This document shows, piece by piece, positions 31,204-56,515 of a DNA stretch of 64,000 nt. The notes below the pieces were generated by a model. It worked only from the letters and a program-made list of their open reading frames with translations, was not told where the DNA came from and made no database searches. The stretch lies in the IMG/VR virus record IMGVR_UViG_3300011113_000581, positions 1-64,000 of that record; one strand, given 5' to 3'. This stretch comes from a virus. The position numbers were made by a program, and so were the translations under genes. Each line of letters starts with the position of its first letter. Within the stretch, counting starts at the first letter, position 1.

Positions 31204-31205
31204 AC

Positions 31206-37890: not shown

Positions 37891-37919
37891 TAGGCAGTTT
37901 AACGTCATACCCAGGACGT
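37891..37919 (-). ncRNA. Family A pseudoknot element, copy 1
   Basis: ACGUC-C-UGGGUA-U-GACGU-UAAAC-UGCCUA. Confidence 0.8.
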
Positions 37920-38415
37920 TAGCTTACTCTTTAATTTGCTTAGCTTCTTCTTCCATAGTTTCTTCAAAAGTATATCGACGCCGTTTAATAGCGTCAGGGT
38001 TCTTTTCTTTTTGAATTACACGTGCATCTTCTGATGCAGCATACAACACCTCCTGGAAAGAATCCCAAACAAACTTAGGATCTTTTAAGTATCCAGTAAA
38101 TCCAAAAGCATCTAATGTAATAACATGTTGTTTAAGTAGTTCACAAAGCAAATCAGATTTACTTTGAACCAAATGCTTAAACTGTTCTTCGGGTAAATCG
38201 TAAGTATCAAGATTCATAACTAAAATCCTCATCAGGAAAAGCTTTTTCAATAGCAGCAGTTAATGCATCTATCATGAATTGTTTTTGCAATTGTTCTCCA
38301 AGGTTTGTCCACCACTGAAGGTCTGCATCTGTTTCATCCCATTCAATTTGAATAGTACCAGATCCATCTTCTTCAGAAGTGTATTTAATATTGAGTTTAA
38401 AAATAGAGTTTGAAT

Positions 38416-39435
38416 CTACGGTTGAGGCACAAAGTTCTGCTCTGTATTCTTTTTGGTTTTCCATGCATTAGATAGTTGAGGTAAGGCTGTCCCTGGGAAA
38501 GGAACAAAGCCATTGTCTAACATGTTATCAAAAAGATCCCATGCATTGTGTTGCGTAAATACTTCTTTAGGTTTGTAGGTTTTCCATGCAGGCAACGGAG
38601 CCATAGAACCATGTTTGGTATACAGAACAAGGAATCGACCTTTATCTGATTTACCTTCTGGTGGTGCGTACCACCAAGCCGTAGCATCTCTTGGTGCTTG
38701 ACCACGGCAATTGTTACGTACCTCAGTCCTTTTAACAAGAAGCTGACGATAACGTTTCATCCAAGTTAAGTGAATACACCAAGGTTGATACCCTTCAATC
38801 TCAGCCTGGAACTCAGACAAATTATTTAGTTGTCTTTGGAAAGAACCGCAAGAGCAGTATGGTGTTTTCTGAAGTTCTTTATTGCAATTAACTTCATTGC
38901 TTTCATTATCCTCACTTGGATCCAAATAGCTTTCATTAATGATGTGGAAACCGTCAGGGGCAACCAAATGTCCCAGGTCAGCCTGATCACTCTGTAAAAG
39001 TGTCTCAAGTTTAATCCGATCCGATATGTGAATAAATTTATCTGCCCACGAACGCTGAGCTTGCGCCGCAAACGAGAGGTGCCCAAGTGCGTGGCTGTAG
39101 TGCCAACCCTTGAACATGATGTATGCATTGTTATGCCAAATGGATGGACCACGGTAGTTAGGACCTAGGTAAGAGAAAAAGTCTTTAAGGCGAAAAGTAA
39201 ATTGCTGGTATGCAGCCTTGACTAAGTTCCTGTCATAAGTTTGCTCAGTACCATCGTTACGCACCACGATAACAGAATCATCTCGCAAATAAATTGCGGA
39301 GATTTCCGTGTCATCAAATTCCGGAAACGCACGTCTGATGTTACTCCGTGTGTAAATAATTTGTTGAGCCTGGTTAAGTTCTTTGATGAGTTTAGTGGTC
39401 ATAATTGAATTGAGTTTGTGTTGATTTCCTGACAT
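38416..39435 (-). CDS. SWIM zinc-finger protein
   Basis: CSCGSF...WCIH. Confidence 0.6.
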   Translation of the reverse strand: MSGNQHKLNSIMTTKLIKELNQAQQIIYTRSNIRRAFPEFDDTEISAIYLRDDSVIVVRNDGTEQTYDRNLVKAAYQQFTFRLKDFFSYLGPNYRGPSIWHNNAYIMFKGWHYSHALGHLSFAAQAQRSWADKFIHISDRIKLETLLQSDQADLGHLVAPDGFHIINESYLDPSEDNESNEVNCNKELQKTPYCSCGSFQRQLNNLSEFQAEIEGYQPWCIHLTWMKRYRQLLVKRTEVRNNCRGQAPRDATAWWYAPPEGKSDKGRFLVLYTKHGSMAPLPAWKTYKPKEVFTQHNAWDLFDNMLDNGFVPFPGTALPQLSNAWKTKKNTEQNFVPQP

Positions 39436-39651
39436 GCTCAGGATTTGGATTTAAATTTTTCAGCCTGGTACACACCGGTAGTAATTTTGTATGTACCAAA
39501 GACTGCTGTTGCAAGGGCGATGGGCGTGCCAATCATAGCAGCAATTCCACCTGCAATCAAACCAGTTGCAACTCCTGTAACAAACGCAACTTTTTCTTCA
39601 TGTTTCATTTGATTATTGTGAGTAGAATTAATTATCTTCAAATAAAAACTT

Positions 39652-39906
39652 ATGGAAGAAACTTACATTCCACTGCATAAGTTTGAAATAGATCCTTCAA
39701 TGGATGATTTGTTTTGGGAAGAAAAAATTAAACGTACAATTCAAGAGTGTAATTCGGTTAGTACTTTAAAAGAAATGGCAACCCTCTTGGCGAGGATTGC
39801 CACGCAACGTCAAGGTGTAATTCGTGGGTTAATCAAAGACATTCACGTTTTTAACAATATGTTAATTGATGTAAATGAAATTGCTAACCCAGAAATTAAA
39901 CCTTAG
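39652..39906 (+). CDS. Hypothetical protein, lone plus-strand gene in the early arm
   Basis: 84-aa ORF. Confidence 0.55.
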   Translation: MEETYIPLHKFEIDPSMDDLFWEEKIKRTIQECNSVSTLKEMATLLARIATQRQGVIRGLIKDIHVFNNMLIDVNEIANPEIKP

Positions 39907-41030
39907 AAACTGTAGTTTTCACCAGTATCAGGATCTTGTGCAGATGCAAGAGCTTTCACTTCGACATCTACATCTGCAGTTCTAGACACCGGAAGAATTT
40001 GTACACCTTCTTTGATTCCGTAAGCACCACCAAGACGTTGTGCATCTTGATATGCATGTTGGTTAATGTAGTCTACAAATATTTCTTGGCATTTCCAAGT
40101 TGATTCACGATCTTCATCAGGAATTGAAAGACGATTCAGTGATTCAATTGCATTTTCTTGAGAACTGTAATCAGGAATTTCAAAAGATTCGATAGCGCAG
40201 ATTTCAACATTATTAGCACCGCGCATTTCATTAGCAAGTACAGGTATAAACACCGTAGTAGCATAAAACTTTTCGTTAAATGCTAAAGGTACTTCAGCTC
40301 CTAACGCTTTACTTAAACACTTAGACATTTCTTTTTCATACAACTTAATTTTATCTGCTGCATCAGTACCATTCAAACCTTTGAGTGTTAGTACAATTGG
40401 AATCTTGTGCGCACGTTTGTTGTCCTGGGTCAGGATATAAACTAGATATTTAGTACGAACACTATACTTACGGCGGTACATTTCACCTTTGCTGTTAGCA
40501 AGATCAGATGCAACTTTATCTGCATCCCAAAGTTTTTTGATTTCAGGATCATCAAATGAACCAATTGTCTGTTTCATCCCTGTGGTTTCTTCTACCATCA
40601 AAGGAGAACGTAACAAAATTTGCATGCGTGGCTCAGTAAAATTCAAGCCTTCTTCAACAGAAGTATTAGGTGCTATACCAAAGGTTTGTTTGTAATTCCA
40701 GATAACTGAATCTTTAGCAAATTGATCTTCTGTTGCAGTCCATCCGCATGTATCTAAATCAATTTTGCGGACAAACCATCCACGTACTTTAGATTTGTTT
40801 AAAGGTTGAATTGTAACAATACCTTGATAGCCAGTAATAAACTCTTTAGATTGAAAAAGTTTAAAGGAATCAAGCCCTCTAGTTGCAATCGCAGATGTTT
40901 CCTTAGTAGCAAGTGCAGATGTTTTCTTAGTAGTCATAACTTTAGTCGGAAGTTTTTCAGAAATAGTTTCTTTGGTAGGCTCTTCAGTTGGATCAGGTTT
41001 TTTTAGTAGATCAAGGACTGATTCAGTCAT
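39903..41030 (-). CDS. Hypothetical protein, possibly replication/recombination related
   Basis: 375-aa ORF near SSB with acidic tail DPDTGE. Confidence 0.7.
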   Translation of the reverse strand: MTESVLDLLKKPDPTEEPTKETISEKLPTKVMTTKKTSALATKETSAIATRGLDSFKLFQSKEFITGYQGIVTIQPLNKSKVRGWFVRKIDLDTCGWTATEDQFAKDSVIWNYKQTFGIAPNTSVEEGLNFTEPRMQILLRSPLMVEETTGMKQTIGSFDDPEIKKLWDADKVASDLANSKGEMYRRKYSVRTKYLVYILTQDNKRAHKIPIVLTLKGLNGTDAADKIKLYEKEMSKCLSKALGAEVPLAFNEKFYATTVFIPVLANEMRGANNVEICAIESFEIPDYSSQENAIESLNRLSIPDEDRESTWKCQEIFVDYINQHAYQDAQRLGGAYGIKEGVQILPVSRTADVDVEVKALASAQDPDTGENYSF

Positions 41031-41050
41031 TGTGTTGTTGAGTTGGTGAG

Positions 41051-41079
41051 TGGGCAGTTTAACGTCGTACCTAGGACGT
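41051..41079 (-). ncRNA. Family A pseudoknot element, copy 2
   Basis: ACGUC-C-UAGGUA-C-GACGU-UAAAC-UGCCCA. Confidence 0.8.
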
Positions 41080-41354
41080 GCCTCACTCTAGATCAAGGTC
41101 AAGGTTTGGCTTAGGAAGATTAAAGGTTTTTAACAATTCATTGTTACGCTTTTCTTCTAAATCAAAATATTCTTCTGAGATAGAAGACATGTGTTCATAA
41201 ATTGCTTTGTTGTAATGACCACAACCAAGAAGAAAACAAACAAATTGATCAATGACATCAGTAACATACATAGAAGTAAGTGTATGTATTGTTGATCTAT
41301 CACCGTCAATATGTTTGAATTCAAAGTAATTAAACTGTTCTGTTTCAGTCATAA

Positions 41355-42170
41355 TCAAAAGGGAGGTTCGCCATCGTCATCTGTAGGAGAGTTTAGTGTA
41401 TAGCCTGGGAGGTCAGGCAGGTTGGTTCCCGTTTGGGCACCCCAAGGTTCAGCAAGATCTTCAGCGACCTTACCGCCCCACAGGCTAGCTACTCCAGTGC
41501 CAGATGCAACAGTTGTTTGTGGTTGAATAGATTTATTTTCGCTATTGTCTTTAGGTGACAAAGTCATAGATACCAATTGAATCTTGGTAGCAACTTTGCG
41601 CTCTTTAGTTTCTTTATCAGTCCAAGCATCAGTTACCAATCTGCCCTGGATCGTAAGACCTACACCTTTACGCGTGAAGTTAACAAGAAGTTCAGCATTG
41701 TTTAACTTATCTTCTGCAGTATTAATTGCATAGAAGTTAAACAGATCTGACTGATTTCTACCCATATAAACACCAAGGGTTTGATTGCAAATCATTAACC
41801 CATCCGGTGTAGTTTTAAATGCACGTGCATCATTTTGGTCGATGTCTTTAACACACCTTCCACTGAGAATGATTGTATTAAGGATTGGGAATGATGCGTC
41901 AACTTGTGTAACAATTCCTCCATGCAAGGAATACGTTTTTGTATTGATGTCGTATCGCAGCTTGGCGCCGTGAATGTAGATTTGTGCATTTGCTGGTACA
42001 CGGGCAAACCGTTCAGCAGCCTTGCCATAAACATTTAGTTGAATTGGAGTTGGTGCTTTATTACCTACTGGAGGCAACAACACATTACATACAGTTGCAA
42101 AAGAGCTTTCGCTAATTGCTTTTTCTTTAGGTGCTTCAGTTGTCTGGGCACAAAGGAATGAAAGATTCAT
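41355..42170 (-). CDS. ssb: Single-stranded DNA-binding protein with two OB-fold-like halves
   Basis: IILSGR, RKGVGLTIQGRLVTDAWTDKET, acidic tail DDDGEPPF; start moved to ATG 42170. Confidence 0.8.
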   Translation of the reverse strand: MNLSFLCAQTTEAPKEKAISESSFATVCNVLLPPVGNKAPTPIQLNVYGKAAERFARVPANAQIYIHGAKLRYDINTKTYSLHGGIVTQVDASFPILNTIILSGRCVKDIDQNDARAFKTTPDGLMICNQTLGVYMGRNQSDLFNFYAINTAEDKLNNAELLVNFTRKGVGLTIQGRLVTDAWTDKETKERKVATKIQLVSMTLSPKDNSENKSIQPQTTVASGTGVASLWGGKVAEDLAEPWGAQTGTNLPDLPGYTLNSPTDDDGEPPF

Positions 42171-42190
42171 TAGATTAAACAGTTGGTGGT

Positions 42191-42219
42191 AAAACAGTTT
42201 AACGTCATACCTGGGACGG
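42191..42219 (-). ncRNA. Family A pseudoknot element, copy 3 (upstream of ssb)
   Basis: CGUC-C-CAGGUA-U-GACG-UUAAAC-UGUUUU; weak stem 2. Confidence 0.7.
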
Positions 42220-42223
42220 TACA

Positions 42224-44089
42224 TCAGTGTGTATCAAACCAGGTGTAGCCTACCTTAGCATCGCCATCGATAGGACAACGGAAGTTAAAGAAGTGTTGAG
42301 CTTTTGGAAAAGCTTCCAATGCTACAGACTTAAGTGTATCCGTTAGCTCTGGTTTGCAAGCCAACTGGACTTCATCATGGATCATAGCTGCTTGTTGCCA
42401 ATCAATACCATGGACATAACCAAGTTCATCCATATCTGTATGAATGTTAATAACAACTTGTTTCATAATTAATGCACCTGCTGATTGCAATAAAACATTC
42501 AATGCTTTGAAATCAGACCTGCAATAAAGAATACGTTTATCTAAACCACGCAACCAGTTATTTTGTTGTAGTGTTTTTGCAAGATGTTCTTTAAGTTTAC
42601 GTAGTGCTGGGACACCATCCATGAATGAATTAATTGCAGTACTACCTAGTTTGCGCAGTATTATTTCATTTTTTTCATTCGGATCAATAACAGTTCCTGC
42701 TTTAAGTGCACCGGCTCCATAGGCTACAGCGTATAGAAGACGCTTTGAAATATCTCTGGTAGCTACACCAAAACGTTCTTGATTATAAACATGAATGTCG
42801 ATTGATTCATCTGTTACTACACGTGCGTACTCACCGTTATCCCAGTATGCAAGATAACCAGCAAGACACCTAAGTTCCAAAGCTTTGGCATCTACACCAA
42901 TTAACTCCCAACCATCTGGTGCATGAAACAAAGATCTACATTCTTTACCATAGGGTGAATATGCTGCTGGCACTTGAGCCATATTTGGATCACGATGGCT
43001 ACAACGTCCAGTAATACAACCATTAGTTATTACATCACCATGTACACAACCAGTGTCATTATTAACTAACTTAAGCCAAGCATTTTTACCATCAGCAATT
43101 TGACCAAGACGTTTCTCAATCAACATATATTCAGCTAAAGGTTTGGCTTCTGGATACGGAAGCTTTTCAAGTACGTCATCATCAAGGACAGGGTTTCCTT
43201 TTTCAGTTGACTTACTTGGTTTCCATCCATATTTTTGTTGGAGCCGCTGAACAATTTGCTGTCTGGATCCAGGATTAAATTCTTCCAGTCGAACTTTTTC
43301 AAACGGAACTCCTTTTACATAACCACGTGCTTTGTTATTAACCTTTGGTATAAATACTTCTTTATGTTCAATAGGTGGAAAAATTTCTTTTAGATGTGTT
43401 TGTAGTTCTGTTTCTTTTGCTCTGAGACTATCCACCAGATCAAGAGCTGCATCCACATCAAAAGGAAAACCTGCTCGCACTTGTGACTCAATACATCTAG
43501 CAAAGTCATGTTCAAGCTTAAGTGCTGGCTCTGGATAGTTTTGATTTTGAATTTTTTCAAATAATTTTGTAGTAACTGCAACGTCTTGCCTACAATACTC
43601 AGCCATTGCTTCCGAGTATTCTGAGAAGTCTTTGAAGTCAATCTTGTAATCAGCCAACCGATAGCCCCATGCCTTAAGTGAGGCTGAACCACGGAGATTC
43701 TTTGGAACCTCCGTATATTGTTCTTCATCAAGTTCATAAAGTTTTTCTTTGGGCCAAATGAGTCGAGTACAAATGAGTGTGTCAATAACTCGTGCAGCTT
43801 TAAACGTATAAAACGGATAGAGCTTACGAATTACAGGCAAGTCGTAGAACAAGATGTTATGGCCAATGAGCACATGAGCCCGAGCCAAATGCTCGAGACC
43901 ACTAGCAATATCATCAGGCCCATAAGTAAAAGTTTGTTTTCGCTGGACATCATACAGTACCAAGCAATGTATCTTTGTAACCTTGTCATAAAGATTATCA
44001 GTTTCTAAATCAAACACATACCAGTTCTCAACCTCTGAACTTGCCTTCAGCGGAAACTTCAAGGTTTTGACTAGCGAGGTCTGTGTCAT
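42224..44089 (-). CDS. polA: Family A DNA polymerase, T7-like, with 3'-5' exonuclease
   Basis: FDLETD, GHNILFYD, YCRQDV, DAKALELR, KRLLYAVAYGAG, HDE. Confidence 0.95.
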   Translation of the reverse strand: MTQTSLVKTLKFPLKASSEVENWYVFDLETDNLYDKVTKIHCLVLYDVQRKQTFTYGPDDIASGLEHLARAHVLIGHNILFYDLPVIRKLYPFYTFKAARVIDTLICTRLIWPKEKLYELDEEQYTEVPKNLRGSASLKAWGYRLADYKIDFKDFSEYSEAMAEYCRQDVAVTTKLFEKIQNQNYPEPALKLEHDFARCIESQVRAGFPFDVDAALDLVDSLRAKETELQTHLKEIFPPIEHKEVFIPKVNNKARGYVKGVPFEKVRLEEFNPGSRQQIVQRLQQKYGWKPSKSTEKGNPVLDDDVLEKLPYPEAKPLAEYMLIEKRLGQIADGKNAWLKLVNNDTGCVHGDVITNGCITGRCSHRDPNMAQVPAAYSPYGKECRSLFHAPDGWELIGVDAKALELRCLAGYLAYWDNGEYARVVTDESIDIHVYNQERFGVATRDISKRLLYAVAYGAGALKAGTVIDPNEKNEIILRKLGSTAINSFMDGVPALRKLKEHLAKTLQQNNWLRGLDKRILYCRSDFKALNVLLQSAGALIMKQVVINIHTDMDELGYVHGIDWQQAAMIHDEVQLACKPELTDTLKSVALEAFPKAQHFFNFRCPIDGDAKVGYTWFDTH

Positions 44090-44261
44090 TTTCAAGAATC
44101 CATTGCAAGATCTGCGCTGCACCAACGCGATACGGATGACAAAAAACTTTTGACAAATCCGAATCAGATTCTACAGGAATCAAAACAAATTTGTTTGTTT
44201 CTAAATCAGCACGTACACAGTAATTAACACCATCTTTACATGTTGAAATAACGTACGACAT
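44028..44261 (-). CDS. Hypothetical protein
   Basis: 77-aa ORF. Confidence 0.55.
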   Translation of the reverse strand: MSYVISTCKDGVNYCVRADLETNKFVLIPVESDSDLSKVFCHPYRVGAAQILQWILENDTDLASQNLEVSAEGKFRG

Positions 44262-44337
44262 AAAAATTCCAAAAGAAAGAACAGTTAAATAATACTGTCT
44301 TTCTTTTGGAATGCAAGAATGTCAGCCAATAAATATT

Positions 44338-45108
44338 TTATTTTTTGTAACCAGTCCATTGACCATTCTTACGTCTAGCTGCCAATGCTTTGGATGCTTC
44401 GGAGCCAGCACGCTGAACATTATGAACAAGTAAAGCAAAAGAGCTGGGACCAAAGCAATGACTGTCATCGTGGTCAATCTCAAGTCCCATTTGCTCAGCT
44501 TGTTTTTCTGTGTATACAACATAAGCTACACGATAAAAAACTTCTGGATACCTGGGAATTAAATAGTCAAGCGTACCGCCAACCGATGCAGTCAAATAAA
44601 AGTTATCCGGGATTACATGACGTGATTCATACCACATACCCAAAGATTTTGTGTAGGCATAAAACTTGATATCAGGATTTTGCCTAGCAACCTGGAGCCA
44701 GGCACGGAAATACAATTCAGTATAAAAATCACCACTCTCATGCACACGTACAAGATCACAAGGTTCACGTACAGGTTGTGCAGCTTGAATAGAGTCATGA
44801 ATAAGTTGAGTTAGTAATGTAAGTTTTTCTTCTGGTCGATCAACAGAATACATTACTTCTTTAATCAGATCCCAGTTACTCCAACGTGATTCGCGTACGC
44901 CTGGCCTAGTTTCTGCCATTGCAGCAAAGCAACGATAGTCTTGCCAGCTTGGCCCGTTCTCTTGTGGCAGATCAGTAATCTTCCCTGTGGTGCGATCAGC
45001 CATTGTCTTACACACACCAGCGTGTGGACAAGAATAACCTGCTGGCAAACTAAAAATCAAACGTTTACCAAGTTTGGCATTACCTGTGGAAAAGTTAAGT
45101 AAGTTCAT
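44338..45108 (-). CDS. Gene product 88 (GP88)-like protein
   Basis: GNAKL..FSLPAGYSCP, CFA, RVHESGDFY, FYAYTKS. Confidence 0.75.
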   Translation of the reverse strand: MNLLNFSTGNAKLGKRLIFSLPAGYSCPHAGVCKTMADRTTGKITDLPQENGPSWQDYRCFAAMAETRPGVRESRWSNWDLIKEVMYSVDRPEEKLTLLTQLIHDSIQAAQPVREPCDLVRVHESGDFYTELYFRAWLQVARQNPDIKFYAYTKSLGMWYESRHVIPDNFYLTASVGGTLDYLIPRYPEVFYRVAYVVYTEKQAEQMGLEIDHDDSHCFGPSSFALLVHNVQRAGSEASKALAARRKNGQWTGYKK

Positions 45109-45129
45109 AGTTGTGTTGAGTTGAGTGAA

Positions 45130-45157
45130 CAGGTAGTTTAATGTCATACCCAGGACA
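45130..45157 (-). ncRNA. Family A pseudoknot element, copy 4
   Basis: UGUC-C-UGGGUA-U-GACA-UUAAAC-UACCUG; compensatory changes. Confidence 0.8.
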
Positions 45158-45179
45158 AGTCAATTAAATTTTATACAAC

Positions 45180-45527
45180 TTAAATATGTTTCCAAGCATC
45201 ATATCTGAGTATGCGATTGATATGTGATTGAGACATCCCAAAAACTTTTGCAAGTTCTGTAGATGTTGCACCTTGTTTAGACATTGTTCTTAATCGAATA
45301 ACATCTTGTTCTTGTAATACAGCGGCATGGTTACTAACACTCTGTTGCTTTTGTGTTACAACTTTATGTTTATTAAGTATGTCAGCTTTAACTAAATAAT
45401 ACTTTTCAATAGTTCTAAATTTAAATTTACAATTGTTACAAACTAACCAACGATGAATTTCTGTTGGTGTTTGTTCTGTTGATTTAGTACGTGTCTTTTG
45501 TTGACACTTTGGACAAGTTAAGTTCAT
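45180..45527 (-). CDS. Zn-ribbon (NrdR/Ogr-like) plus HTH protein
   Basis: CPKC...CNNCKFKFRTIE; ELAKVFGMSQSHINRI. Confidence 0.7.
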   Translation of the reverse strand: MNLTCPKCQQKTRTKSTEQTPTEIHRWLVCNNCKFKFRTIEKYYLVKADILNKHKVVTQKQQSVSNHAAVLQEQDVIRLRTMSKQGATSTELAKVFGMSQSHINRILRYDAWKHI

Positions 45528-47623: not shown

Positions 47624-47646
47624 TGGCTTGCACTTCGTTAGTTAGT

Positions 47647-48003: not shown

Positions 48004-48031
48004 GGTTTTAAATTAAGTGTGGATTGGTACC

Positions 48032-48059
48032 CTGGGACTTATACCTTACGGATGCCCAG
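48032..48059 (-). ncRNA. Family B internal-loop hairpin, copy 1
   Basis: CUGGG-CAU-CC-GUAA-GG-UAUAAGU-CCCAG. Confidence 0.75.
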
Positions 48060-48062
48060 TTT

Positions 48063-48563
48063 TTATGTTACATATTTATTATTAAGAATATAATGCAATG
48101 TTCCTTTAGAACTAATATTAAATTTTTCCATTAAAGCTTTATATCCTAAACCATTTGAATGATCGTTTTTAATCTGATTAATTTGATCTTTTGTGTATTT
48201 GCGTATACAACTTGATGCTTTAATTGCATGATTCAATCGTTGTTTTGAACATCTGTCTAACATGTTTTCTGTTTGAGTTCCAATGCAAATATTGTCAAAC
48301 GAATTATCTTTACTATTTCCATTTAAATGTCTAACAACTATGCCAACTTCAAATAATTTTTCTTGATATTTTTCATACGCAACTAAACGATGCAGAAATA
48401 CTTTATGTGTTTTTGTACTTATTTTTAAATTAAAAAATAAATAGCCAGACTGAGAGCAACTTAATTTTAAAGGTTCTTTCTTGCGAATACCATAAACAAT
48501 ATTATTTTTTACTCGATAGCCTTTTCGATAAGCACATATTAAAGCGGTTTGAGCTTGATTCAT
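48063..48563 (-). CDS. HNH homing endonuclease
   Basis: HRLVA...VRHLNGNSKDNSFDNI.IGTQTEN; start ATG 48563 just after the tRNA. Confidence 0.85.
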   Translation of the reverse strand: MNQAQTALICAYRKGYRVKNNIVYGIRKKEPLKLSCSQSGYLFFNLKISTKTHKVFLHRLVAYEKYQEKLFEVGIVVRHLNGNSKDNSFDNICIGTQTENMLDRCSKQRLNHAIKASSCIRKYTKDQINQIKNDHSNGLGYKALMEKFNISSKGTLHYILNNKYVT

Positions 48564-48578
48564 AAATAATAAAAAGAC

Positions 48579-48653
48579 TGCCGACGACAGGATTCGAACC
48601 TGCACTTGAGTGATTTTAAGTCACTTACCTTCTTCCAATTGGGTTACGTCGGC
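48579..48653 (-). tRNA. trnL: tRNA-Leu(UAA), short variable loop, CCA not encoded
   Basis: GCCGACG/CGTCGGC acceptor, AGTGA-CTTAAAA-TCACT anticodon arm, GCAGG-TTCGAAT-CCTGT T arm, discriminator A. Confidence 0.9.
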
Positions 48654-48911
48654 ATTACTTGGATTTACACTCACATCTATTGATGTGTGATACCAAGTGT
48701 GATCATGAGGTAATGGTTCACAGCCGTAGTCCCACGTATCGTAATCATCTTCGTTACGTGGATCCTCAATCAATATGTATTGAGGTGAATGATCATGGAT
48801 GTATTCACCAAGGTTTGCCATGGCCATGGCAAGTAATTGTTCGTCTGTGTAGTTAGTCATTGGGTGTGACCCGCCCTATTGTCGAGGATAGGACGGGTCA
48901 GCCTGTGGGGG

Positions 48912-50666
48912 CTATGCAGATGCTAGCGCAGATTCGCGTTTGGTCAACGCTTTACTGAAAGCAGTTGTGTAAAGCTCACGTTCCTCATCCGTAAGCCTGG
49001 CATTACCAATACCAGCGATCTGTTTGACAGACATCATACCCATGTTTACTTCTAGTTGAATGGTAAACATTGGTTTGCCATCAATCATGCACAACACAAT
49101 GAAGTGTTTCTTTTTACGAACACCATCTGCATAACCACTGGCACTACCGACGCAATTACGTACGGCTTGTCCCCAAGCAGCTAGTTGATGCGTGTCAACT
49201 GGCTGGAAGAATGTCCACTTGCTGGAACCAAGTTCAAGTTTGACTGGTTCAGGAAACAAATCTTGGGGTAGTGATTCATTTTTGTTCTTAACTTTCCAGG
49301 CAACAGATTGGATGTGATCATGGAACTCCATAAGTCTCCAACGTTTTGGAACGTCAAGAGTCAATGGTTCTGTTGCGCACTCGTTGTGTGCAAGTACAGT
49401 ATCTAACATTGAAATAGTATCACCCCAGTTGGAATAATAAAAACGTGGATGCTGCAATTCTTCATCGTAAGTAAAACGAGTACGTGTGCTATTCATTTCT
49501 TTATCATATTCTTTTTCAAGGATAGAAAAGAAAGAAGCAACAGGCATATGTTTGTTTAACCAAGCTTGTGTTAGAAGTGAGCCATAACGTGTTGATTGAA
49601 AACTCAACAATTGATTAATGTGAGATTGATAATAATCAATAGGGCAGTTAGGCCAAACTTCATACACCCAATTAATCGTATTAAACAAAACATGGATTTG
49701 AGACCATGGTGCACGAATAGATTTAAGCAGTTGATTTTTAGAATTATAAAAGCTTGCATTAACTTCATCACATTTTGCTTGAATCCATTTTTTGAAGAAT
49801 GGAGTAGCAATAATGTGTAGTAGTTTATTTAGCCTTCGATAAATATCACCGTCATAACCACTACCGTGTGCATAGTGAGTAATAAGTTTGAACAATAAGT
49901 CATATGAAATTACAGCTTTAGTAATGTCATGTTGCTGCCAATAATCTTTGCATTGGTGTCCGTAACGATAGTCATTAGTAAAGATTACGCAAGCTGGATT
50001 GATTGCCTGGAGCCGAGCAAAGGTTGATCGACTATCAGACCACATAGGAATAGTGTTAAACAGTTGATCTTCAAATCCTTTTAGTTGTTGAGACAAGTTG
50101 CCAGACTTTTTATAATAGCTTTGAACACTTGGAATGTTCCAGTTTTTAGCATCGTGACCATCAATAATATCTTGTTTAGTTACTAGTTCGTTGTATGTAA
50201 AATATTGAACTCGACCAACATGATATGTAAATAGTTTGTTTGGATTGTCAATATTTAAATGTTGACGAATCTTATGTGGAAGCATCCTGTGTGCAGATGC
50301 ATTGTCTTTGAATGCATATGAGTAGCCATAAACATATTGATTTTCTTGTCCTTTGGGTGGTAACCATGCTGCATACCACACTTGCTCAAAGTGATACAAG
50401 ATTGCGTACGGTGTTACTACACGATCAATAATTCGTGTGAACAGTTGATAACGATCAGGTGCTGCCTGTGAGTTAATATTGTCAATAGCATCGTTATACA
50501 ATGATGCTGGCAATACTTCAGTTGGAATAAGTTGATTAGGTTTACCTAGTGGATGTGTAGCTTTCTTAGTTTTGTTAGTTGTTTTCTGCTGTTTAGCCAA
50601 TGCTTTAAGAGCTGGGTCATACGCCATCAACTCTTGTTGCAGTTGAGCAGGAAGACGGAATTGCAT
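48912..50666 (-). CDS. PcfJ-like domain protein
   Basis: C-terminal EFHD...GQAVRNCVGS..Y...FTIQL...QIAG..N. Confidence 0.65.
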   Translation of the reverse strand: MQFRLPAQLQQELMAYDPALKALAKQQKTTNKTKKATHPLGKPNQLIPTEVLPASLYNDAIDNINSQAAPDRYQLFTRIIDRVVTPYAILYHFEQVWYAAWLPPKGQENQYVYGYSYAFKDNASAHRMLPHKIRQHLNIDNPNKLFTYHVGRVQYFTYNELVTKQDIIDGHDAKNWNIPSVQSYYKKSGNLSQQLKGFEDQLFNTIPMWSDSRSTFARLQAINPACVIFTNDYRYGHQCKDYWQQHDITKAVISYDLLFKLITHYAHGSGYDGDIYRRLNKLLHIIATPFFKKWIQAKCDEVNASFYNSKNQLLKSIRAPWSQIHVLFNTINWVYEVWPNCPIDYYQSHINQLLSFQSTRYGSLLTQAWLNKHMPVASFFSILEKEYDKEMNSTRTRFTYDEELQHPRFYYSNWGDTISMLDTVLAHNECATEPLTLDVPKRWRLMEFHDHIQSVAWKVKNKNESLPQDLFPEPVKLELGSSKWTFFQPVDTHQLAAWGQAVRNCVGSASGYADGVRKKKHFIVLCMIDGKPMFTIQLEVNMGMMSVKQIAGIGNARLTDEERELYTTAFSKALTKRESALASA

Positions 50667-50693
50667 AGTGAGTTCGGAGTGAGTGTGTGGTGT

Positions 50694-50723
50694 TGAGCAG
50701 TTTAACGTCATGCTCAGGACGTT
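50694..50723 (-). ncRNA. Family A pseudoknot element, copy 5
   Basis: AACGUC-C-UGAGCA-U-GACGUU-AAAC-UGCUCA; both stems fully Watson-Crick. Confidence 0.85.
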
Positions 50724-51494
50724 GGATCAGATGCGCATTATTTCTTCACCATTACGGGTAAAGACAATGGCATCATCATAATCATCCATGTACTCTTGCA
50801 AAGTCATGGTCTTGTCTGGTGTAAAGACAGGCATCTGGTTTGCAAACCCAAATGCACTATATACACGACCTTTAGGACCACGGATAACAAGGTACCAACG
50901 TTTAAATTCAATAGAGAAACCAATCATGATTAATAGTAATCAGAGTTGTCTACAACGATAGGATGCCACTGGAGACCCAAGCTGTTAAGGTAGTCAATAA
51001 AGCTGCCTTCGTTAGTTGGAATAGTTTGGTCAGCATCAACATAGAAAGATGCTTGACATAATCCAGGAACATATTCAGGTGGATCAATATGCGTTGCTTG
51101 ATATTTGAGATGTGCATCTTCAACCATTGCAGTAACTGTGACATGATCATCTTTGATGGTTGTTTCTTCAATTGAAATAATTGACATGAGTAGTGTGAAT
51201 AGATGAAGTGTTGTTGTTACTAATAGTATCTACGTGGTACAGGTTTTGAGGGGGGTCCTAGGGGGGATTATTTGTTTGCAGTAGTTAGTTGCTCTGTTTT
51301 AGCAAACATTCCATTAGGACCATACTTCTCAACAACATCAGGAAATGTGTCGAGTAAACGCTGACGGTTTTTAGGATCTGCATATCGGAGAGCAAGTCCC
51401 AATGCAGAGATGAATGAACCACCCATAGTTTCCATACGGGTGACAAGTTCAGTGAATTGAATTGGTGTCATAGTTGTTAAGGTTGAGGTGAATG

Positions 51495-51533
51495 CTGGGA
51501 CTTACACACTATACTTACGTTAGTGATGCCCAG
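51495..51533 (-). ncRNA. Family B internal-loop hairpin, copy 2
   Basis: CUGGG-CAU-CACUA...UAGUG-UGUAAGU-CCCAG. Confidence 0.75.
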
Positions 51534-51540
51534 TGTTTCT

Positions 51541-51744
51541 TTAAAATAATTTAATATTTCGTTTACTCAATCCTGTGCCTGGGATACTAATAGATCCAAG
51601 GACACCAGATTTGCGAGCGTTAAGTGTTAGCTGGAATGGACCAAGTTTGAATGATTTGGTATACGATTTGATACCATGTTCAGTTAAGTTAAAGCCAGCG
51701 ATAGTGCGGTCAAAGTTAATAGGTGATTTCTTTGTCATTACCAA
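51541..51744 (-). CDS. Small basic protein (DUF4236-like)
   Basis: KSFKLGPFQLTL...SISIPGTGLS. Confidence 0.55.
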   Translation of the reverse strand: MVMTKKSPINFDRTIAGFNLTEHGIKSYTKSFKLGPFQLTLNARKSGVLGSISIPGTGLSKRNIKLF

Positions 51745-52660
51745 TCTCCATTACTAAAAGATTGAGTTACAACAAATGAAAGACTAAAAGCTTCTTCTTC
51801 AATTTCATTATCATCTGGTGTATAGTATCGAGCTTCAAAGCCACCAGATCCTGTTGTCTTACATTCAATAGCTCGATATAAAAGATTACGACATGAATTT
51901 TTCATGCGATTAATAGTTGGTACAGAGTGACCAGGCTCACCAATTGTATTAACCCATTTCCAATCCAAGGCATGCATTGTAATCAAAACTTTCTCAAAGT
52001 TAAAACGTTCGAGAAGATCTTCGATGAGTTCGGATTGATGATCAGTAATTGTGAAAGTCATACTGATTTAATGAATTGAATGATTAAGTATGTGCCACAT
52101 ATAAAGAATGTGCACAATACAAATGCTTCAGGCCAGCTCATGGTTTGTTGTAGATAGTTCCTTTACGTTTGTAAAGGTCAAACCCTTCCATTGTCTTGGT
52201 GTCAAGAAATGTCCAAGGCCCAATGTTGGCACAGCCAATTAAGTAGTAGAACCGATAGAAGCCTGGGTTTTCATCCCACTCTTCATCGGTACACATGAGT
52301 TTAGATCCAACGCCAAGACTATTCTTGCGTTGGGTAACCCATATGTCACCTGGCTGAGCAGGCAGGTGACGTGTATTAGGTTGAGTCTTTGTTTGAGTCT
52401 TTGGTTTAGTTATGGTCATTGCAGATCTCCAGGTATGAGTGCATTGGTGTCTTCATCAGACATATTTGTCATAACAAATTTATTTCCATCGGCGTCTACA
52501 AAGCCGCCGACAAAACCAATACCATGTCGATCAGCAGATTCTTTCATCTTGGCAACGATTGACATAGCTTGCAATCGCTGACTATCAATTGCATCAGGGA
52601 TGCGTGGTTTAGGTGCGTCGTTAAGTGCGGTCATAGTGAATTAAGTGTGGAATAGTTGAG

Positions 52661-52705
52661 CAAGCTGGGACTTACACGCTTTCTGTCAGAACGATGCCCA
52701 GCTTG
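52661..52705 (-). ncRNA. Family B internal-loop hairpin, copy 3
   Basis: CAAGCUGGG-CAU-CG...CG-UGUAAGU-CCCAGCUUG. Confidence 0.75.
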
Positions 52706-52803
52706 TGTTCATAAGCTTACTACTCTCTGTCAAGGGTAAGCACCCCGTTCATGAGTTGTAACACTCACGTTGAGGGTGAAAGCTTATTGAGAATAGTTCG
52801 CAA

Positions 52804-53127
52804 TTACCGATGCATCTCTTGATGTTCTTTCCATGCAGCGGCATGCATCTCAGCCATGGTAATAGGTGGTTCACCATAAGAATCTTCTGGCTCACCAGGC
52901 CATTCAATTGCTTTCTCTAGGTAGCCAATAGCTTCCAATAGATATTCATCTGAACCATACGGAAGATCGTTGTATCCCATAGGACGTTTCTCTTCTCGTT
53001 GGTAGATAGCTTTAAGTTCTTCGATGATTAGCGTGATGCGCATATCATCGTTGAGGCGTGGGGTGTATTCACTGCCATCGTGACGAGTATACGTCTGGCT
53101 AGTGAAGTAAAGTTCGTGTTTGCCCAT
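52804..53127 (-). CDS. Hypothetical protein
   Basis: GEPPITMAEMH..AWK. Confidence 0.65.
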   Translation of the reverse strand: MGKHELYFTSQTYTRHDGSEYTPRLNDDMRITLIIEELKAIYQREEKRPMGYNDLPYGSDEYLLEAIGYLEKAIEWPGEPEDSYGEPPITMAEMHAAAWKEHQEMHR

Positions 53128-53155
53128 AGTGTGATTGCTGTAGGTTTGGGTTGAT

Positions 53156-53196
53156 GCTGGGACTTACACCACGTACTTATGTAGTGGATGCCCAGC
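53156..53196 (-). ncRNA. Family B internal-loop hairpin, copy 4
   Basis: GCUGGG-CAU-CCAC...GUGG-UGUAAGU-CCCAGC. Confidence 0.75.
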
Positions 53197-53261
53197 TTGT
53201 AGTATTGGCACTATTACCAATACATGGGTAGTATTGGCAAATCTTACGTGCTATTCAATAT

Positions 53262-53615
53262 TTAAATTAGACCAAGCAATGAGAGCCAGGAGTCTGGATG
53301 GTCGGGTTCTACTTCGTCATCACCTGGGGTGAAACAGACTGAGTCGAACGCCCACTCCTCAATGTCCTCGTTGCTTGGGATTTCGTACCAACCCTGGAGG
53401 TCTTCGTCAGCGTACTTGGGTTTCCAGTAGAGCTGGAGTACGCCATGCTTGTCGCGGTAAACGCTGCCGTTTTTGGGGTAGGTGCTGAGGTCTCCAAGCT
53501 TGATTCCCTTTGGATCAAAGGTGATGTCAGCTTGGAACTGCTCTGTTCCTTCTTCTTCTGAGAAGGGAACATAACCGAAGGACTCAGCGATTTGTTGGGT
53601 GACGGGGTGAAGCAT
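53262..53615 (-). CDS. Hypothetical protein
   Basis: EEW..DSVC.TP..D.VEPD...SWL..LGLI. Confidence 0.65.
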   Translation of the reverse strand: MLHPVTQQIAESFGYVPFSEEEGTEQFQADITFDPKGIKLGDLSTYPKNGSVYRDKHGVLQLYWKPKYADEDLQGWYEIPSNEDIEEWAFDSVCFTPGDDEVEPDHPDSWLSLLGLI

Positions 53616-53910
53616 AAGATTAGTTCTGTGATAAGGATGGAAATGATTGCGATGATGTGAATAAACACATCGTCTTCATGTTGTGTAATTGGTTGATTAG
53701 TCATAGTTAGAAATTACGTAACGTTCGTTGTAATAATCACAAGCATTGCGTTCGGCACTAGAGATTTCATCAATGCCATCCCATTCGCTTTGCTCGGATT
53801 CACGCATAGCTTGCTCTTGCTGGTACGCAAAATCAGCCCATGCATCTAGAAAATCTGCATTGTAGTTCTCATCAAATGGTTGAGTTGTCATGCAATGAAT
53901 TGACAAAGGA

Positions 53911-53939
53911 CTAAGCAGTTTAACGTCATACTCAGGACG
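53911..53939 (-). ncRNA. Family A pseudoknot element, copy 6
   Basis: CGUC-C-UGAGUA-U-GACG-UUAAAC-UGCUUA. Confidence 0.8.
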
Positions 53940-55454
53940 AGTATCAGGAACATGAATAAATGACGTTTATCAGGATTACAAGTAATAGTTAATCAAATGG
54001 CACAAAATCTGTATCTTCTATAAGTTTTGAAATGTGGATACAATCTTCTTTAATAGCTTCTTCATCACCATCCCATTCGCTAGTCTGGTTCTCAATTACT
54101 TCGCATCCAATATCTTCCAGTTGATCAGTAAATGATTTCCAACTGTTTGAGTTGCCGTAAACATGAGCGTAGCGCCCAGTTTGATCAGCAACAAGTGCTA
54201 CGTATGTCATAGGTTGAGTTTCTGGTAGTGTGAATGGTCTTTGTTCAAAGGCCATTAACTTTGCAGTGATGGCTCGTAGATCATGATCAGATAGTTCTCC
54301 GTTAGATCTCCATTTCAACGAGGTGTTGTTGCATTGTGTCGTTGTGTTGACCACTGGAGTAACGGTTTGGTGAAATCGGTACCAAGCATAGCGCCCGTTA
54401 ATACAAACACAATGCCAGTAACAATGGTCACAGATAAGAAGTTACAAAAGTAACGACTTAGTCTGTGCTGCTGGTACTCAGGGTACATATCAGTGTGAAT
54501 GAATTGTTTGGGTCCAAGTTTAGTAATCTGTTTCATAATAGTTGTGTCAATGTAAAGGGAATCAACCTGACGGTTGATGGGGGGACTAGTACTACTGTAC
54601 TACGTTGCGGTAGGCAGGAGGGGAGGGGAGATCTCCTGCAGAAAACCCACTCATCATTGATGAGAAGGGTTAAGTGCAGGAATCAATCGTCAAGATGCTC
54701 TTGTTCCCATTTAATAAGAGCGTGGTTTAATCTCACCTTTCGTTCAAGTACCACGCAAAAAGGAACAATATCTTGAAATTCTGTTAGGCCATCTTGCCAT
54801 TTATAAAAGATCTCTAATGCAGCTTGGCGCTGCTGTTCAATCTCCTGGTCAATAACATTGTCTCTACGTGCAAGAAGACGAGCTTCTTGGGTGAGGAGAC
54901 GTTCAACAGCTTTAGGAGTCATGATGAATCCAGGTGGAGTTGCGTTAAGTTGTGCAGATGTAAAGTCTGCAGAAACCCATCTTGTTACAGATGGGAAATT
55001 GCAGACATTGTGTTAGTCGGCCATTGCTTGACGCCGTTCACACTCCATAGTTTGGCAATAGTTGTAGTAATCCACCATCGCAGCATGCATCTCTGACATG
55101 CCACTGGGAATACCACTGCCAAGAGTCTGAACAGCTCGATCCCACCAATGTCCATCAATGCATTGTTGCTCGTAATGAAGCTGAGTTGATTCACCACCAT
55201 ACCAGACGACACGATCGCTGGAATTAACAAGAGGTTGATAGATAAACATGAGTTGAGTAAGTAAATTAACGATGAACAGGGGGGACTTTCGGCATAATCG
55301 CATTAGCAAGTGCAAAGCGAACAGCCTTGATTGTTGTTCCCACCTTCTCTTTGCTTTGGTCACGCTCCAGCCTATTAGCTGTAGCTACCAGTAATGACGC
55401 AATTGATTTGCGAATAGCCATGAGTAACATAAGCCACTCTTAGTGAGTGGCAAT

Positions 55455-55501
55455 AACTGCCAGGGGAGTTGAACCCCTGGTACGGCCTAGAACCGTCAGT
55501 T
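55455..55501 (-). ncRNA. Family C tRNA-mimic element, copy 1
   Basis: AACUG-[ACGG/CCGU hairpin]-CCAGGGG-UUCAACU-CCCCUGG-CAGUU. Confidence 0.75.
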
Positions 55502-55701
55502 TGTGCGATAGCCATTAGCTGCGCACCAAGCCATATGGACTTGATGCTTATCAGCAGGCCATGCATGTGTGCTGCATTGTTGTGCAGTAGCTTTGTCAAG
55601 CTGGTGCACGGTTACTTGTGATGCAATACCAAAGATTGCAAGTGTAATAGCAATTGACTTGATCATTGAGTTGAAGTAAGCCACACTCAGTGTGTAGCAA
55701 T

Positions 55702-55748
55702 AACTGTGGGAGGGTTTGCACCTCCCAACCCGCTTTAACGGATCAGTT
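55702..55748 (-). ncRNA. Family C tRNA-mimic element, copy 2
   Basis: AACUG-AUCCGU-UAAA-GCGGGU-UGGGAGG-UGCAAAC-CCUCCCA-CAGUU. Confidence 0.8.
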
Positions 55749-55895
55749 GCGAACTAATTCCTCACTAACGAGGAACCGTTCACCTTCCCCTGGTTCTTGG
55801 GATTGAACATATTTGTCAGCCGCTTCACGGCTAGCAAATACACCCAAGAAGTGATCCTGGTACAGATCACAGAGGATAACAACGTAAACCGACAT
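55743..55895 (-). CDS. 50-aa early protein (not in ORF track)
   Basis: AGGAG SD 6 nt before ATG; MSVYVVILCDLYQDHFLGVFASREAADKY...LVRN. Confidence 0.65.
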   Translation of the reverse strand: MSVYVVILCDLYQDHFLGVFASREAADKYVQSQEPGEGERFLVSEELVRN

Positions 55896-55938
55896 GGTTT
55901 ACTCCTGTTATGCGGTACCCATCTCCGCTGGGGGTAAT

Positions 55939-55985
55939 AACTGGGACAGGGTTTGCACCTGTCCACCCGCTTTAACGGATCAGTT
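55939..55985 (-). ncRNA. Family C tRNA-mimic element, copy 3
   Basis: AACUG-AUCCGU-UAAA-GCGGGU-GGACAGG-UGCAAAC-CCUGUCC-CAGUU. Confidence 0.8.
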
Positions 55986-56153
55986 GCTACGCACAATGCG
56001 CAGCTTTGGGTCTTGCTTACAAGCAAAAGATATTTGCTGAGGCGTTGCCGCCTCGCAAATGTAGTTGGGGTCACCCCCAAAAAACTTGTTGGTGACGCAT
56101 GTCACCTTCATGTCATCCATACGGATGACAAAGTAAAGATTGTTAAGGTTCAC
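55980..56153 (-). CDS. Small early protein (GTG start)
   Basis: AGGAG SD in repeat; ends RIVRSN-TGA inside the family C element. Confidence 0.55.
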   Translation of the reverse strand: MNLNNLYFVIRMDDMKVTCVTNKFFGGDPNYICEAATPQQISFACKQDPKLRIVRSN

Positions 56154-56196
56154 AGGAATCTCCTGTTGTGCGGTACCCATCTCCGCTGGGGGTAAT

Positions 56197-56235
56197 GCCT
56201 GGGGCTGGAGTCGAACCAGCCCTACACCTTCAGGC
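56197..56235 (-). ncRNA. Family C tRNA-mimic element, copy 4
   Basis: GCCUG-AAGGUGUA-GGGCUGG-UUCGACU-CCAGCCC-CAGGC. Confidence 0.75.
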
Positions 56236-56457
56236 GGGATCAAATGGAGAAACCCATACCAAATCTTGAGGATCCAGTAAATACAAACTGCACATAGCGC
56301 AGTAGATCTTGTGTTCATCCCACTGCGCAGCAGTTGGATCTAGTTTCACCAATTCCATGAACTGATCAACAAACCACTGAGCAGTAACTCCATACACAGG
56401 TGCATCACCAATGGTGTCGCACCCAATAACCTTGTTAGCAATGTTGAGAAGAGTCAT
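56230..56457 (-). CDS. Small early protein
   Basis: 75-aa ORF between family A copy 7 and family C copy 4. Confidence 0.6.
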   Translation of the reverse strand: MTLLNIANKVIGCDTIGDAPVYGVTAQWFVDQFMELVKLDPTAAQWDEHKIYCAMCSLYLLDPQDLVWVSPFDPA

Positions 56458-56485
56458 GATGTTGATAAGTAATTAGAATGAACTT

Positions 56486-56515
56486 GCTACGGTTTAACGT
56501 CCATCAGCTAGACGT
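56486..56515 (-). ncRNA. Family A pseudoknot element, divergent copy 7
   Basis: ACGUC-UAGCUGAUG-GACGU-UAAAC-CGUAGC. Confidence 0.6.

Follow-up and report, generated by a model that had tools for sequence, protein, structure and literature searches.

What role do short, folded sequences play in the gaps between the early genes of a phage, where they recur in copies that differ in sequence and keep their pairing? The question is raised by a 64,000-nucleotide (nt) stretch of DNA (this whole stretch is called the window below), bases 1-64000 of the 88,133-bp viral contig IMGVR_UViG_3300011113_000581, which is rated complete and which we read as that of a lake cyanophage. The minus strand carries every gene between ~36 and 57.7 kb, and along this early arm, from 37.9 to 56.6 kb, lie at least four families of structured elements, A, B, T and D, all with conserved structure and all on the minus (coding) strand in the same orientation as the genes; the pairings are maintained by compensatory changes in relatives from more than 100 viral contigs. 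We propose that these modules would serve as RNA-level punctuation that defines and protects the ends of processed mRNA units, and give this reading a probability of roughly one half. An initial annotation of the window had described three families (A, B and a family C, here called T) as lying on the coding strand, with copies that differ in sequence and retain pairing. Strand and pairing stand as described, and the covariation across homologs on which that description depended was found in relatives of A, B, T and D; the number of families was set too low, as D and a small pseudoknot behind two of the T copies have to be added.

Family A is an H-type pseudoknot with the consensus (C)GUC-C-UGNNNA-U-GAC(G)-UUAAAC-UNNNCA in seven gaps (Table 1). 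Seven pseudoknots had been counted at the outset; six are canonical and are matched by a covariance model, R2, with expectation values (E) of 4e-5 to 3e-11, while the seventh, A7, is degenerate and matched in part, with U as the single base of loop 1 (L1), a 9-nt loop and a weaker, shifted stem 2 of 4 bp, and lies directly behind D3. An exact 9-mer, ACGTTAAAC, occurs six times on the minus strand of the arm and just once elsewhere in the window. Scanned with the pattern of A, IMG/VR gave more than 116 contigs, and in the 150 distinct copies that were analysed 93.7% of the cells assigned to pairs are paired. Stem 2 shows compensatory changes at five of its six pairs; double-sided changes fill 169 cells as compared to 64 ± 14 in shuffled alignments (none of 500 shuffles reached 169), and the signal is lost when the partners are slid by one to three columns. 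Because the search pattern left stem 2 and the outer pair of stem 1 unconstrained, this evidence is independent of how the copies were retrieved. Stem 1, (C/U)GUC/GAC(G/A), is 98% paired and its outermost pair covaries as well (CG 98, UG 21, UA 20). S-EIVl, a polar freshwater cyanophage whose PcfJ-like protein is 43% identical to its counterpart in the window, carries A at the corresponding places, before its GP88 and SSB genes, where compensatory changes have altered stem 2; its copy at GP88, for instance, pairs UGUC/GACA and AAGCA/UGCUU.

Family B is a hairpin, CUGGG-CAU-(variable hairpin)-URUAAGU-CCCAG, whose internal loop, CAU / URUAAGU, is invariant across four gaps. Its covariance model, R1, finds exactly the four copies first described in the window (E = 5e-8 to 9e-13), and B is present in more than 120 contigs. 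Covariation is seen in the extension of the outer stem (P1) and at the base of the inner stem P2 (41 short copies; 0 of 500 shuffles). The shortest copy, B1, reads CUGGG-CAU-CC GUAA GG-UAUAAGU-CCCAG and follows directly after the stop codon of the HNH gene; a BLAST search with 32 nt of B1 against cultured phages gave no match.

The four T copies, at 55455-56235, overlap the ends of open reading frames (ORFs) and bear out the tRNA mimics reported earlier. Each has a 5-bp closing stem that includes the UG of the upstream UGA, a small hairpin, and a 7-bp stem whose loop has 7 nt; the 7-bp stem is followed directly by the 3' strand of the closing stem. In T1-T4 the 5-bp stem beside the 7-bp stem makes a 12-bp stack of the acceptor/T-arm kind, and the loops UUCGACU, UGCAAAC (twice) and UUCAACU fit the T-loop consensus U-U/G-C-R-A-N-Y. 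Among relatives that were retrieved by their conserved flanks alone, with no pairing required, the 7-bp stem is 99% paired, as compared to 68% with shuffled partners (52 distinct copies, 18 different stems). Models of tRNA (ARAGORN; Rfam at E up to 10) do not recognise T, their sole match in the arm being a genuine tRNA-Leu(UAA) at 48578-48654 (-), which is overlapped by the predicted GTG start of the HNH endonuclease ORF (48063-48605); a 3' discriminator and CCA are also absent from T, as the closing stem is followed by AUUGCC or AUUACC. We regard the T elements as mimics of the top half of tRNA, and not as tRNA genes. Systems punctuated by tRNA-like structures include mitochondrial tRNA punctuation, the t-elements of plant mitochondria and the mascRNA of MALAT1. 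T resembles these in its stack (5+7 bp) and T-loop and in its place at the cistron junctions of a polycistronic RNA, and differs from them in having neither an anticodon arm, a D arm in tRNA form nor CCA, and in the upstream stop codon built into its closing stem. Behind T1 (56165-56196, -) and T2 (55905-55938, -), upstream of AGGAG, lies a small H-type pseudoknot, CCCA-GCGG-AGA-UGGG-UA-CCGC, with compensatory changes in relatives (e.g., GCCU/AGGC, UGUGG/CCACA); T3 and T4 have a plain hairpin in its place.

The D hairpin, CUGCA-...-CCC-(hairpin)-GGGUUUUC-UGCAG, is present in the window in two copies and one diverged variant. Its outer stem covaries in 55 relatives, stop codon included (UGA paired with UCA or UUA). 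The 5' strand is repeated 6-8 nt downstream and the repeat can pair into an alternative, mutually exclusive hairpin, which has at least seven of eight pairs in 33 of the 55 relatives, as compared to 5 of 55 in the control. We also note more conserved gap sequences at 51188-51267 and 54537-54632 (-), with C-rich runs, a ACUAGUAC...GUACUAGU hairpin and an AUCAACC-GUCA-GGUUGAU hairpin, which are common to a few close relatives only.

At which level do these elements act? The paired cells of A hold G:U 130 times and A:C 21 times, so that the folded molecule is the sense-strand RNA, and since the pairing also spans what would be a promoter together with the start of its transcript, the elements are supported as RNA-level rather than DNA-level features. 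Function through DNA sequence only, such as that of phage promoters, is what the initial annotation had set against its own proposal, and the same counts speak against it. Compensatory changes couple segments that a duplex promoter would not, orthologous copies have diverged with the structure kept, and no T7-like RNA polymerase was found in the genome, a weak negative, as control genomes gave no match either. We therefore hold it very improbable that the elements act at the DNA level, be it as phage-polymerase promoters, as sites of an operator-like kind or as cassettes that reshuffle early genes by recombination, like the PeSL (promoter early stem-loop) of T4-type phages, even though they precede genes in the same orientation, the short B copy agrees with the 15-bp Syn5 promoter at 13 of 14 positions, and the swapping of modules between orthologues described below shows movement by recombination. 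The Syn5 lead was rejected as a coincidence: Syn5 sites are without the 3' half of B, and the part that matches is the variable hairpin of B.

The arm encodes a family-A DNA polymerase, SSB, a GP88-family protein, an HNH endonuclease, the PcfJ-like protein and a DUF5895 protein (39903-41030; Pfam). Matches to sigma-70-like promoters are depleted in it (34 as compared to 50 ± 8 in shuffles) and the best one on its strand lies at its head; together with the search for a T7-like polymerase, this makes the arm look like one or a few long transcription units that are read by the host polymerase. Terminator-like hairpins, strong and with U tracts, do occur inside the arm, at 44262-44337 (-) after GP88 and at 39775-39803 (-) in the 260-nt gap before the DUF5895 gene, so the arm may be more than one transcription unit.

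None of the A, B, T or D modules is matched in Rfam 15, whether at the gathering thresholds or at E up to 10, and this includes the preQ1, pistol, twister, hammerhead, hepatitis delta virus (HDV) and hatchet models. The first impression that these are not named families holds to this extent; A does have a close named relative. The coremin motif, GUCCGAAGACGUUAAACUAC (PMC10520033), is an exonuclease-resistant RNA (xrRNA-C) of beny-, cucumo- and other RNA viruses, of which a Watson-Crick variant, xrRNA-WCC, has also been described (Dilweg et al.; PMC6546385, PMC10520033, PMC10321173). Coremin needs two hairpins, of which the first has 3-4 bp and a YGAD loop, and a conserved spacer (PMC6546385), and an octaloop is functional in the coremin context of BNYVV, which is beet necrotic yellow vein virus (PMC10520033). 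It blocks Xrn1 and scanning ribosomes in vitro (PMC6546385, PMC10520033); xrRNA-WCC, which has Watson-Crick pairs between loop and spacer, stalls Xrn1 and makes E. coli ribosomes frameshift (PMC10321173), and for the Xrn1 resistance of both the second hairpin, which lies directly downstream, is reported as strictly required (PMC6546385, PMC10321173).

Stem 1 of A, (C)GUC/GAC(G) with a pyrimidine-purine pair closing the loop, is that of the first coremin hairpin, which across coremin and xrRNA-WCC has 3-5 bp. L1 is C in all six canonical copies of the window, as it is in five copies of cultured phages that were found by BLAST and not by the pattern; A7 has U, a base that coremin tolerates there. 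The spacer UUAAAC is shared, A reading CGUC-C-(loop)-GACG-UUAAAC, as are the intergenic positions and the overall H-type layout like that of beet western yellows virus (BWYV), and the loop of A pairs with a segment 3' of the spacer by Watson-Crick pairs, which is the loop-spacer interaction of xrRNA-WCC. The two also differ. The loop of A has 8 nt as compared to 4-6 in coremin, and its sequence, C-U-G-N-N-N-A-U, set against YGAD/YGNNAD, fits Y..G...A-D at its ends with an extra U and paired middle bases. Stem 2 of A has 5-6 Watson-Crick or wobble pairs in place of 3 pairs or a non-canonical contact, and where the coremin spacer is UUAAACUAC, all the window copies have UUAAAC, the last three bases (the UAC end) being replaced by the 3' strand of stem 2; other phages have the spacer variants AAAAAC and CUAUAAAC. 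A moreover belongs to a double-stranded DNA phage of a bacterium, where there is no Xrn1. Because the second hairpin that Xrn1 resistance reportedly requires is missing, we do not file A as a member of coremin; we suggest that it is a new variant near it, which may work similarly. We found no description of these phage elements in the literature, and PMC10520033 and PMC10321173 name neither bacteriophages nor prokaryotes.

Two other RNA folds invite comparison with A. It resembles the frameshift pseudoknots of luteovirids (BWYV and potato leafroll virus, PLRV) and the gene 32 knot of T2/T4 in its compact H-type fold, whose stem 1 of 4-5 bp is crossed by an A-rich loop, whose L1 is a single base with C conserved there, and whose junction is one base as well; a comparison with the luteovirid type of frameshift pseudoknot is made in PMC10321173. 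In contrast to the luteovirid knots, A is without a slippery heptamer at 5-9 nt, follows stop codons and does not lie inside an overlap, and has many copies per genome. No slippery heptamer was found upstream of A1-A3, A5 and A6, and that of A4 falls after the upstream stop; a GGGTTTT upstream of the degenerate A7 ends 9 nt away, a spacing in the frameshift range. Frameshifting or readthrough was rejected, as there is no usable slippery site and the frames past the stops of A1 and A2 close, by eye, within a few codons. Alternatively, the compact knot with its A-rich third loop and many invariant unpaired bases might be a riboswitch-like aptamer of the preQ1-I type of layout that tunes early gene expression. 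We find this scarcely credible: no riboswitch model matches at E up to 10, the single-nucleotide junction of A sits where preQ1-I has its ligand pocket, and the copies precede tRNAs as well as unrelated genes and trade places with B and D.

How are the modules placed with respect to the genes on either side? The next ATG lies 20-30 nt downstream of the end of A and B in the window, close to the 20-32 nt first estimated; in relatives the commonest spacing is 20-29 nt behind A and 25-34 nt behind B. The leaders behind A and B are G-poor and unfolded, in agreement with the unstructured leaders of the earlier description, and those behind T1 and T2 do carry AGGAG. The partial zoning that had been noticed was recovered too, with T at 55.5-56.2 kb, B at 48.0-53.2 kb and A throughout. 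On the upstream side, the stop codon lies exactly 6 nt from the GUCC of A in 48 of 117 cases, 7-9 nt away in 29 and closer in 3 (at A1 the stop ends 5 nt 5' of stem 1), which fits a structure that is hard for ribosomes to pass. A 5-nt spacer with a stop codon in the A site puts stem 1 at the mRNA entrance of the ribosome, which is the geometry of -1 frameshifting; our reading is that genome compaction may have pushed the end of the ORF as near as a ribosome can get to a knot that is hard to unwind. The stems of B and D start at or on the upstream stop codon and so are melted at every termination. We note in addition that the first ATG of the PcfJ-like (50711), SSB (42224) and GP88 (45147) ORFs (-) lies inside or just before an A pseudoknot (A/GCAUGAC). 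The true starts are likely the ATGs at 50666, 42170 and 45108, respectively, which are in frame and conserved, and knowledge of the A motif would then correct the starts of three window genes that first-ATG gene callers over-extend.

The proteins encoded just downstream of 284 module copies were clustered, and orthologous downstream genes proved to have different modules in different phages. For instance, the orthologues of the PcfJ-like gene behind A5 have A in 35 relatives and B in 2, and those of the gene behind A6 have A in 10 and B in 9; in other clusters B outnumbers A by 22 to 3, A outnumbers B by 7 to 3, D outnumbers B by 13 to 2, and D outnumbers A by 8 to 2. A, B and D are generic interchangeable modules. 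Such swapping before orthologues speaks against regulators dedicated to one gene and against one sequence-specific protein as their partner, which also bears on the possibility that the modules act as barriers or operators for the translation machinery. They might keep ribosomes that have terminated from sliding on into the next leader, prevent the G-poor leader from pairing with upstream coding RNA, or nucleate the spreading of a phage protein over the unstructured leader as the T4 gene 32 pseudoknot does with gp32. Such control would suit modules 20-34 nt before starts, just outside the 30S footprint, and the presence of A before SSB and other replication genes. The architecture of A, with a 1-nt L1 and a 6-bp stem 2, is that of the T2/T4 gene 32 pseudoknot. 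The paired stop codon of D and its alternative hairpin look like a ribosome-driven switch, and coremin and xrRNA-WCC do block or stall ribosomes, the latter enough for frameshifting in E. coli. Nevertheless, three or four unrelated folds interchange, which speaks against a single sequence-specific partner, and A and B directly flank tRNA genes and A lies at the start of non-coding RNAs, where there is no translation; we think translation control or insulation, which is with self-cleavage the main rival of punctuation, unlikely.

These neighbours of A come from other contigs. A lies 1-4 nt before tRNA genes in some of them, and in a gut-phage lineage it lies 0-1 nt after the CCA of a tRNA-Met, a junction kept in ~45 contigs; one such locus (L275, 3045-3309, -) has, in order, an HDV-like ribozyme (RF02682, 47.6 bits), 6 nt, a tRNA, 3 nt, a tRNA-Met with CCA, 1 nt and an A-type pseudoknot. 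In a first, hand-picked batch of contigs, pistol, twister-P5 and RAGATH-5 ribozymes are found in gaps neighbouring A, and a DUF2800 RNA begins right after A. This company raises the question of whether A, and perhaps B and D, are themselves new classes of small ribozymes that cut at or near their own 5' edge, with the role that pistol, twister, hammerhead and HDV-like (theta) ribozymes have in other phages. The position of A, 0-1 nt after the CCA of tRNA-Met or right after the discriminator base, is that of the theta ribozyme, and trimming of the 3' end would otherwise be blocked by a knot right after CCA; the unpaired nucleotides include many invariant ones, and an interchange of unrelated folds is known for ribozyme classes. 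With pistol (RF02679) in particular A shares a 5-bp hairpin, a loop that pairs downstream, a UUAAA-type linker and a place in neighbouring gaps of the same phage contigs, and it resembles the P1 / pseudoknot / AAA-linker part of the pistol consensus. A has neither P2, P3 nor the cleavage strand of pistol, however, and matches no Rfam ribozyme model; coremin, its nearest relative, is a stable roadblock for which cleavage is not reported, and tandem arrays of A would be unusual for ribozymes. At ~28 nt, A is also smaller than any known natural self-cleaving class. Self-cleavage is, in our estimation, improbable. An HDV-like or theta fold for A was rejected in particular, since P3, L3, P1.1 and the J4/2 cytosine are absent when the sequence is read against the published description. 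The idea that A replaces a theta ribozyme that follows the same tRNA-Met in sister phages was also dropped, as the scan gave almost one lineage only and was uninformative.

The arrays just mentioned hold two or three A-like mini-pseudoknots in tandem, at L104 (-) ~600-700, L045 (+) 363-415 and L330 360-435; their stem 2 has just 3-4 bp, their third loops read, e.g., AUAAAC or GUAAAC, and one array is in a crAss-like phage. Verified copies of A proper are present in cultured phages of Staphylococcus, Mycobacterium, Bacillus and Vibrio and in a crAss-like phage, with a stem 1 that covaries among them (GAC/GUC, CUC/GAG); in phages of Arthrobacter, Nostoc and Microcystis A is represented by unverified BLAST hits only.

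We return to punctuation as the reading that we prefer. Promoters near 57.2 kb would give rise to one long message of the early arm, or to a few, and the folded modules would punctuate this message, each filling the space between the footprints of the ribosome that ends the upstream gene and the ribosome that starts the next. T, as a copy of the acceptor/T-arm stack of tRNA, would be suited to cutting by the host tRNA-processing enzymes RNase P or RNase Z. A would be a mechanical roadblock to enzymes that travel 5'->3' on RNA, which in cyanobacteria might be RNase J, and the cistron behind it, with the knot at its 5' end, would persist as a protected unit; B and D might do an equivalent job by other means. 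The net effect would be to turn a polycistronic early transcript into separately stable and separately translated units. In favour of this reading are the covarying structures on the sense strand, the exchange of modules before orthologues, the coremin core of A, the spacing of A behind stop codons and its company of tRNAs and ribozymes in other contigs. Hosts of cultured phages with A, counting the unverified BLAST hits, include Staphylococcus, Bacillus, Mycobacterium, Arthrobacter, Nostoc, Microcystis and Synechococcus, of phyla that have RNase J.

Several findings weigh against this proposal. No second hairpin follows A in the window, where the top five copies of the model were folded (A2 and A7 lie outside this set), and a second hairpin of at least 4 bp is found downstream of A in 0 of 64 G-poor leaders and 28 of 90 other contexts. 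The stems of B and D, which terminating ribosomes must melt, fit a switch better than a permanent shield. Nor is close association tighter on the downstream side than on the upstream side, with 37 copies that have a close start only and 25 that have a close stop only. A second batch of 20 A-bearing loci gave no Rfam ribozyme or other Rfam match, so that the ribozyme neighbourhood of A is not general. Finally, gamma-proteobacteria are not known to have RNase J; with A in Vibrio and crAss-like phages, for whose hosts RNase J is absent or uncertain, a single target enzyme does not explain its spread. The exonuclease roadblock that the initial annotation suggested thus gains support from the coremin core of A, which stalls Xrn1 in vitro, and loses RNase J as its sole target. 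Its other suggestion, an analogy with RNase III sites of T7, fails on anatomy. The T7 early-region sites (R0.3-R1.3) are irregular duplexes of ~20 bp and of one kind. They share with the modules a position at the cistron junctions of a long early phage transcript, from which they give mRNAs that are stable separately, whereas the folds in the window are of several kinds and small, with 10-12 bp, and none would plausibly be a substrate of RNase III: the stacks of A have 10-11 bp, B has 5-10 + 2-7 bp and T has 12 bp.

It is possible, if doubtful, that A is a true relative of the coremin xrRNA in phages of many phyla and that in the S-EIVl lineage it is one letter of a combinatorial A/B/T/D punctuation code, whose four letters would be alternative means of closing one message unit and opening the following one. 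UGUAAGU, the T-loop in some T copies (L151), is the same heptamer as the 3' strand of the B internal loop; this URUAAGU heptamer, common to B and some T, and the CUGGGCAU ... U-AA-CCCA blocks that A and B share, hint at one structural core in permuted topologies. If A were such a relative, knots resistant to exoribonucleases and ribosomes would be shared by eukaryotic RNA viruses and double-stranded DNA phages, and A would provide the first xrRNAs of the prokaryotic world. If the modules work as we propose, phages without Shine-Dalgarno-driven coupling would split a long transcript by RNA structure alone, exonuclease-resistant RNAs would extend from eukaryotic RNA viruses to bacteriophages, with the question of common descent versus convergence for a 28-nt fold, and several very small portable parts (28-47 nt) would be at hand with which genes in synthetic operons could be insulated, in cyanobacteria as in Gram-positive bacteria.

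Table 1. Positions in the window of the A, B, T and D modules and of the best promoter match on the arm strand.
Feature	Positions	Span of covariance model	E	Strand	Remarks
A1	37891..37918	R2, 37885-37925	6e-11	-	24 nt 5' of the ATG of a small membrane ORF
A2	41051..41078	R2, 41045-41085	4e-5	-	precedes DUF5895 gene
A3	42191..42218	R2, 42185-42225	2e-8	-	precedes SSB gene
A4	45130..45157	R2, 45124-45164	4e-9	-	precedes GP88-family gene
A5	50694..50721	R2, 50688-50728	3e-11	-	precedes PcfJ-like gene
A6	53912..53939	R2, 53906-53946	3e-10	-	precedes small ORF, ATG 53891
A7, degenerate	56486..56515		1.7	-	only GACGUUAAAC scores with R2; read by eye
B1	48032..48059	R1, 48024-48066	9e-13	-	
B2	51495..51533	R1, 51487-51540	5e-8	-	long inner stem
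B3	52665..52701	R1, 52657-52708	5e-10	-	outer stem with 5-bp extension
B4	53157..53195	R1, 53149-53202	7e-10	-	
T1	56197..56235			-	closing stem GCCUG/CAGGC, 7-bp stem, loop UUCGACU; then small pseudoknot, AGGAG
T2	55939..55985			-	AACUG/CAGUU, loop UGCAAAC; then small pseudoknot, AGGAG
T3	55702..55748			-	53 nt identical in four other contigs
T4	55455..55501			-	loop UUCAACU
D1	54630..54685			-	UGA-UUC-CUGCA-CUUAA-CCC-(hairpin)-GGGUUUUC-UGCAG-GAG; stop codon paired in stem
D2, short variant	54967..55004			-	CUGCA-AUUU-CCC...GGGUUUC-UGCAG; second UCUGCA copy downstream
D3, diverged D-like hairpin	56517..56557			-	AAUCGUUGA ... GGG UUU UCAGCGAUU; predicted fold; 89% identical copy in L248
Sigma-70-like promoter	57205..57233			-	best on arm strand, TTAACA-17-TATATT; arm head; consensus match only

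Two features outside the arm may be mentioned. A 1223-aa ORF at 57629-61300 (+) diverges from the head of the arm; it was considered as a hidden polymerase and rejected, having no sequence match in Pfam, PHROG or the PDB. Further away, at 31165-31277 (+), lies an abiF RNA (Rfam RF03085, 49.7 bits), and 4 nt on ARAGORN calls a tRNA-like sequence with an odd two-base anticodon.

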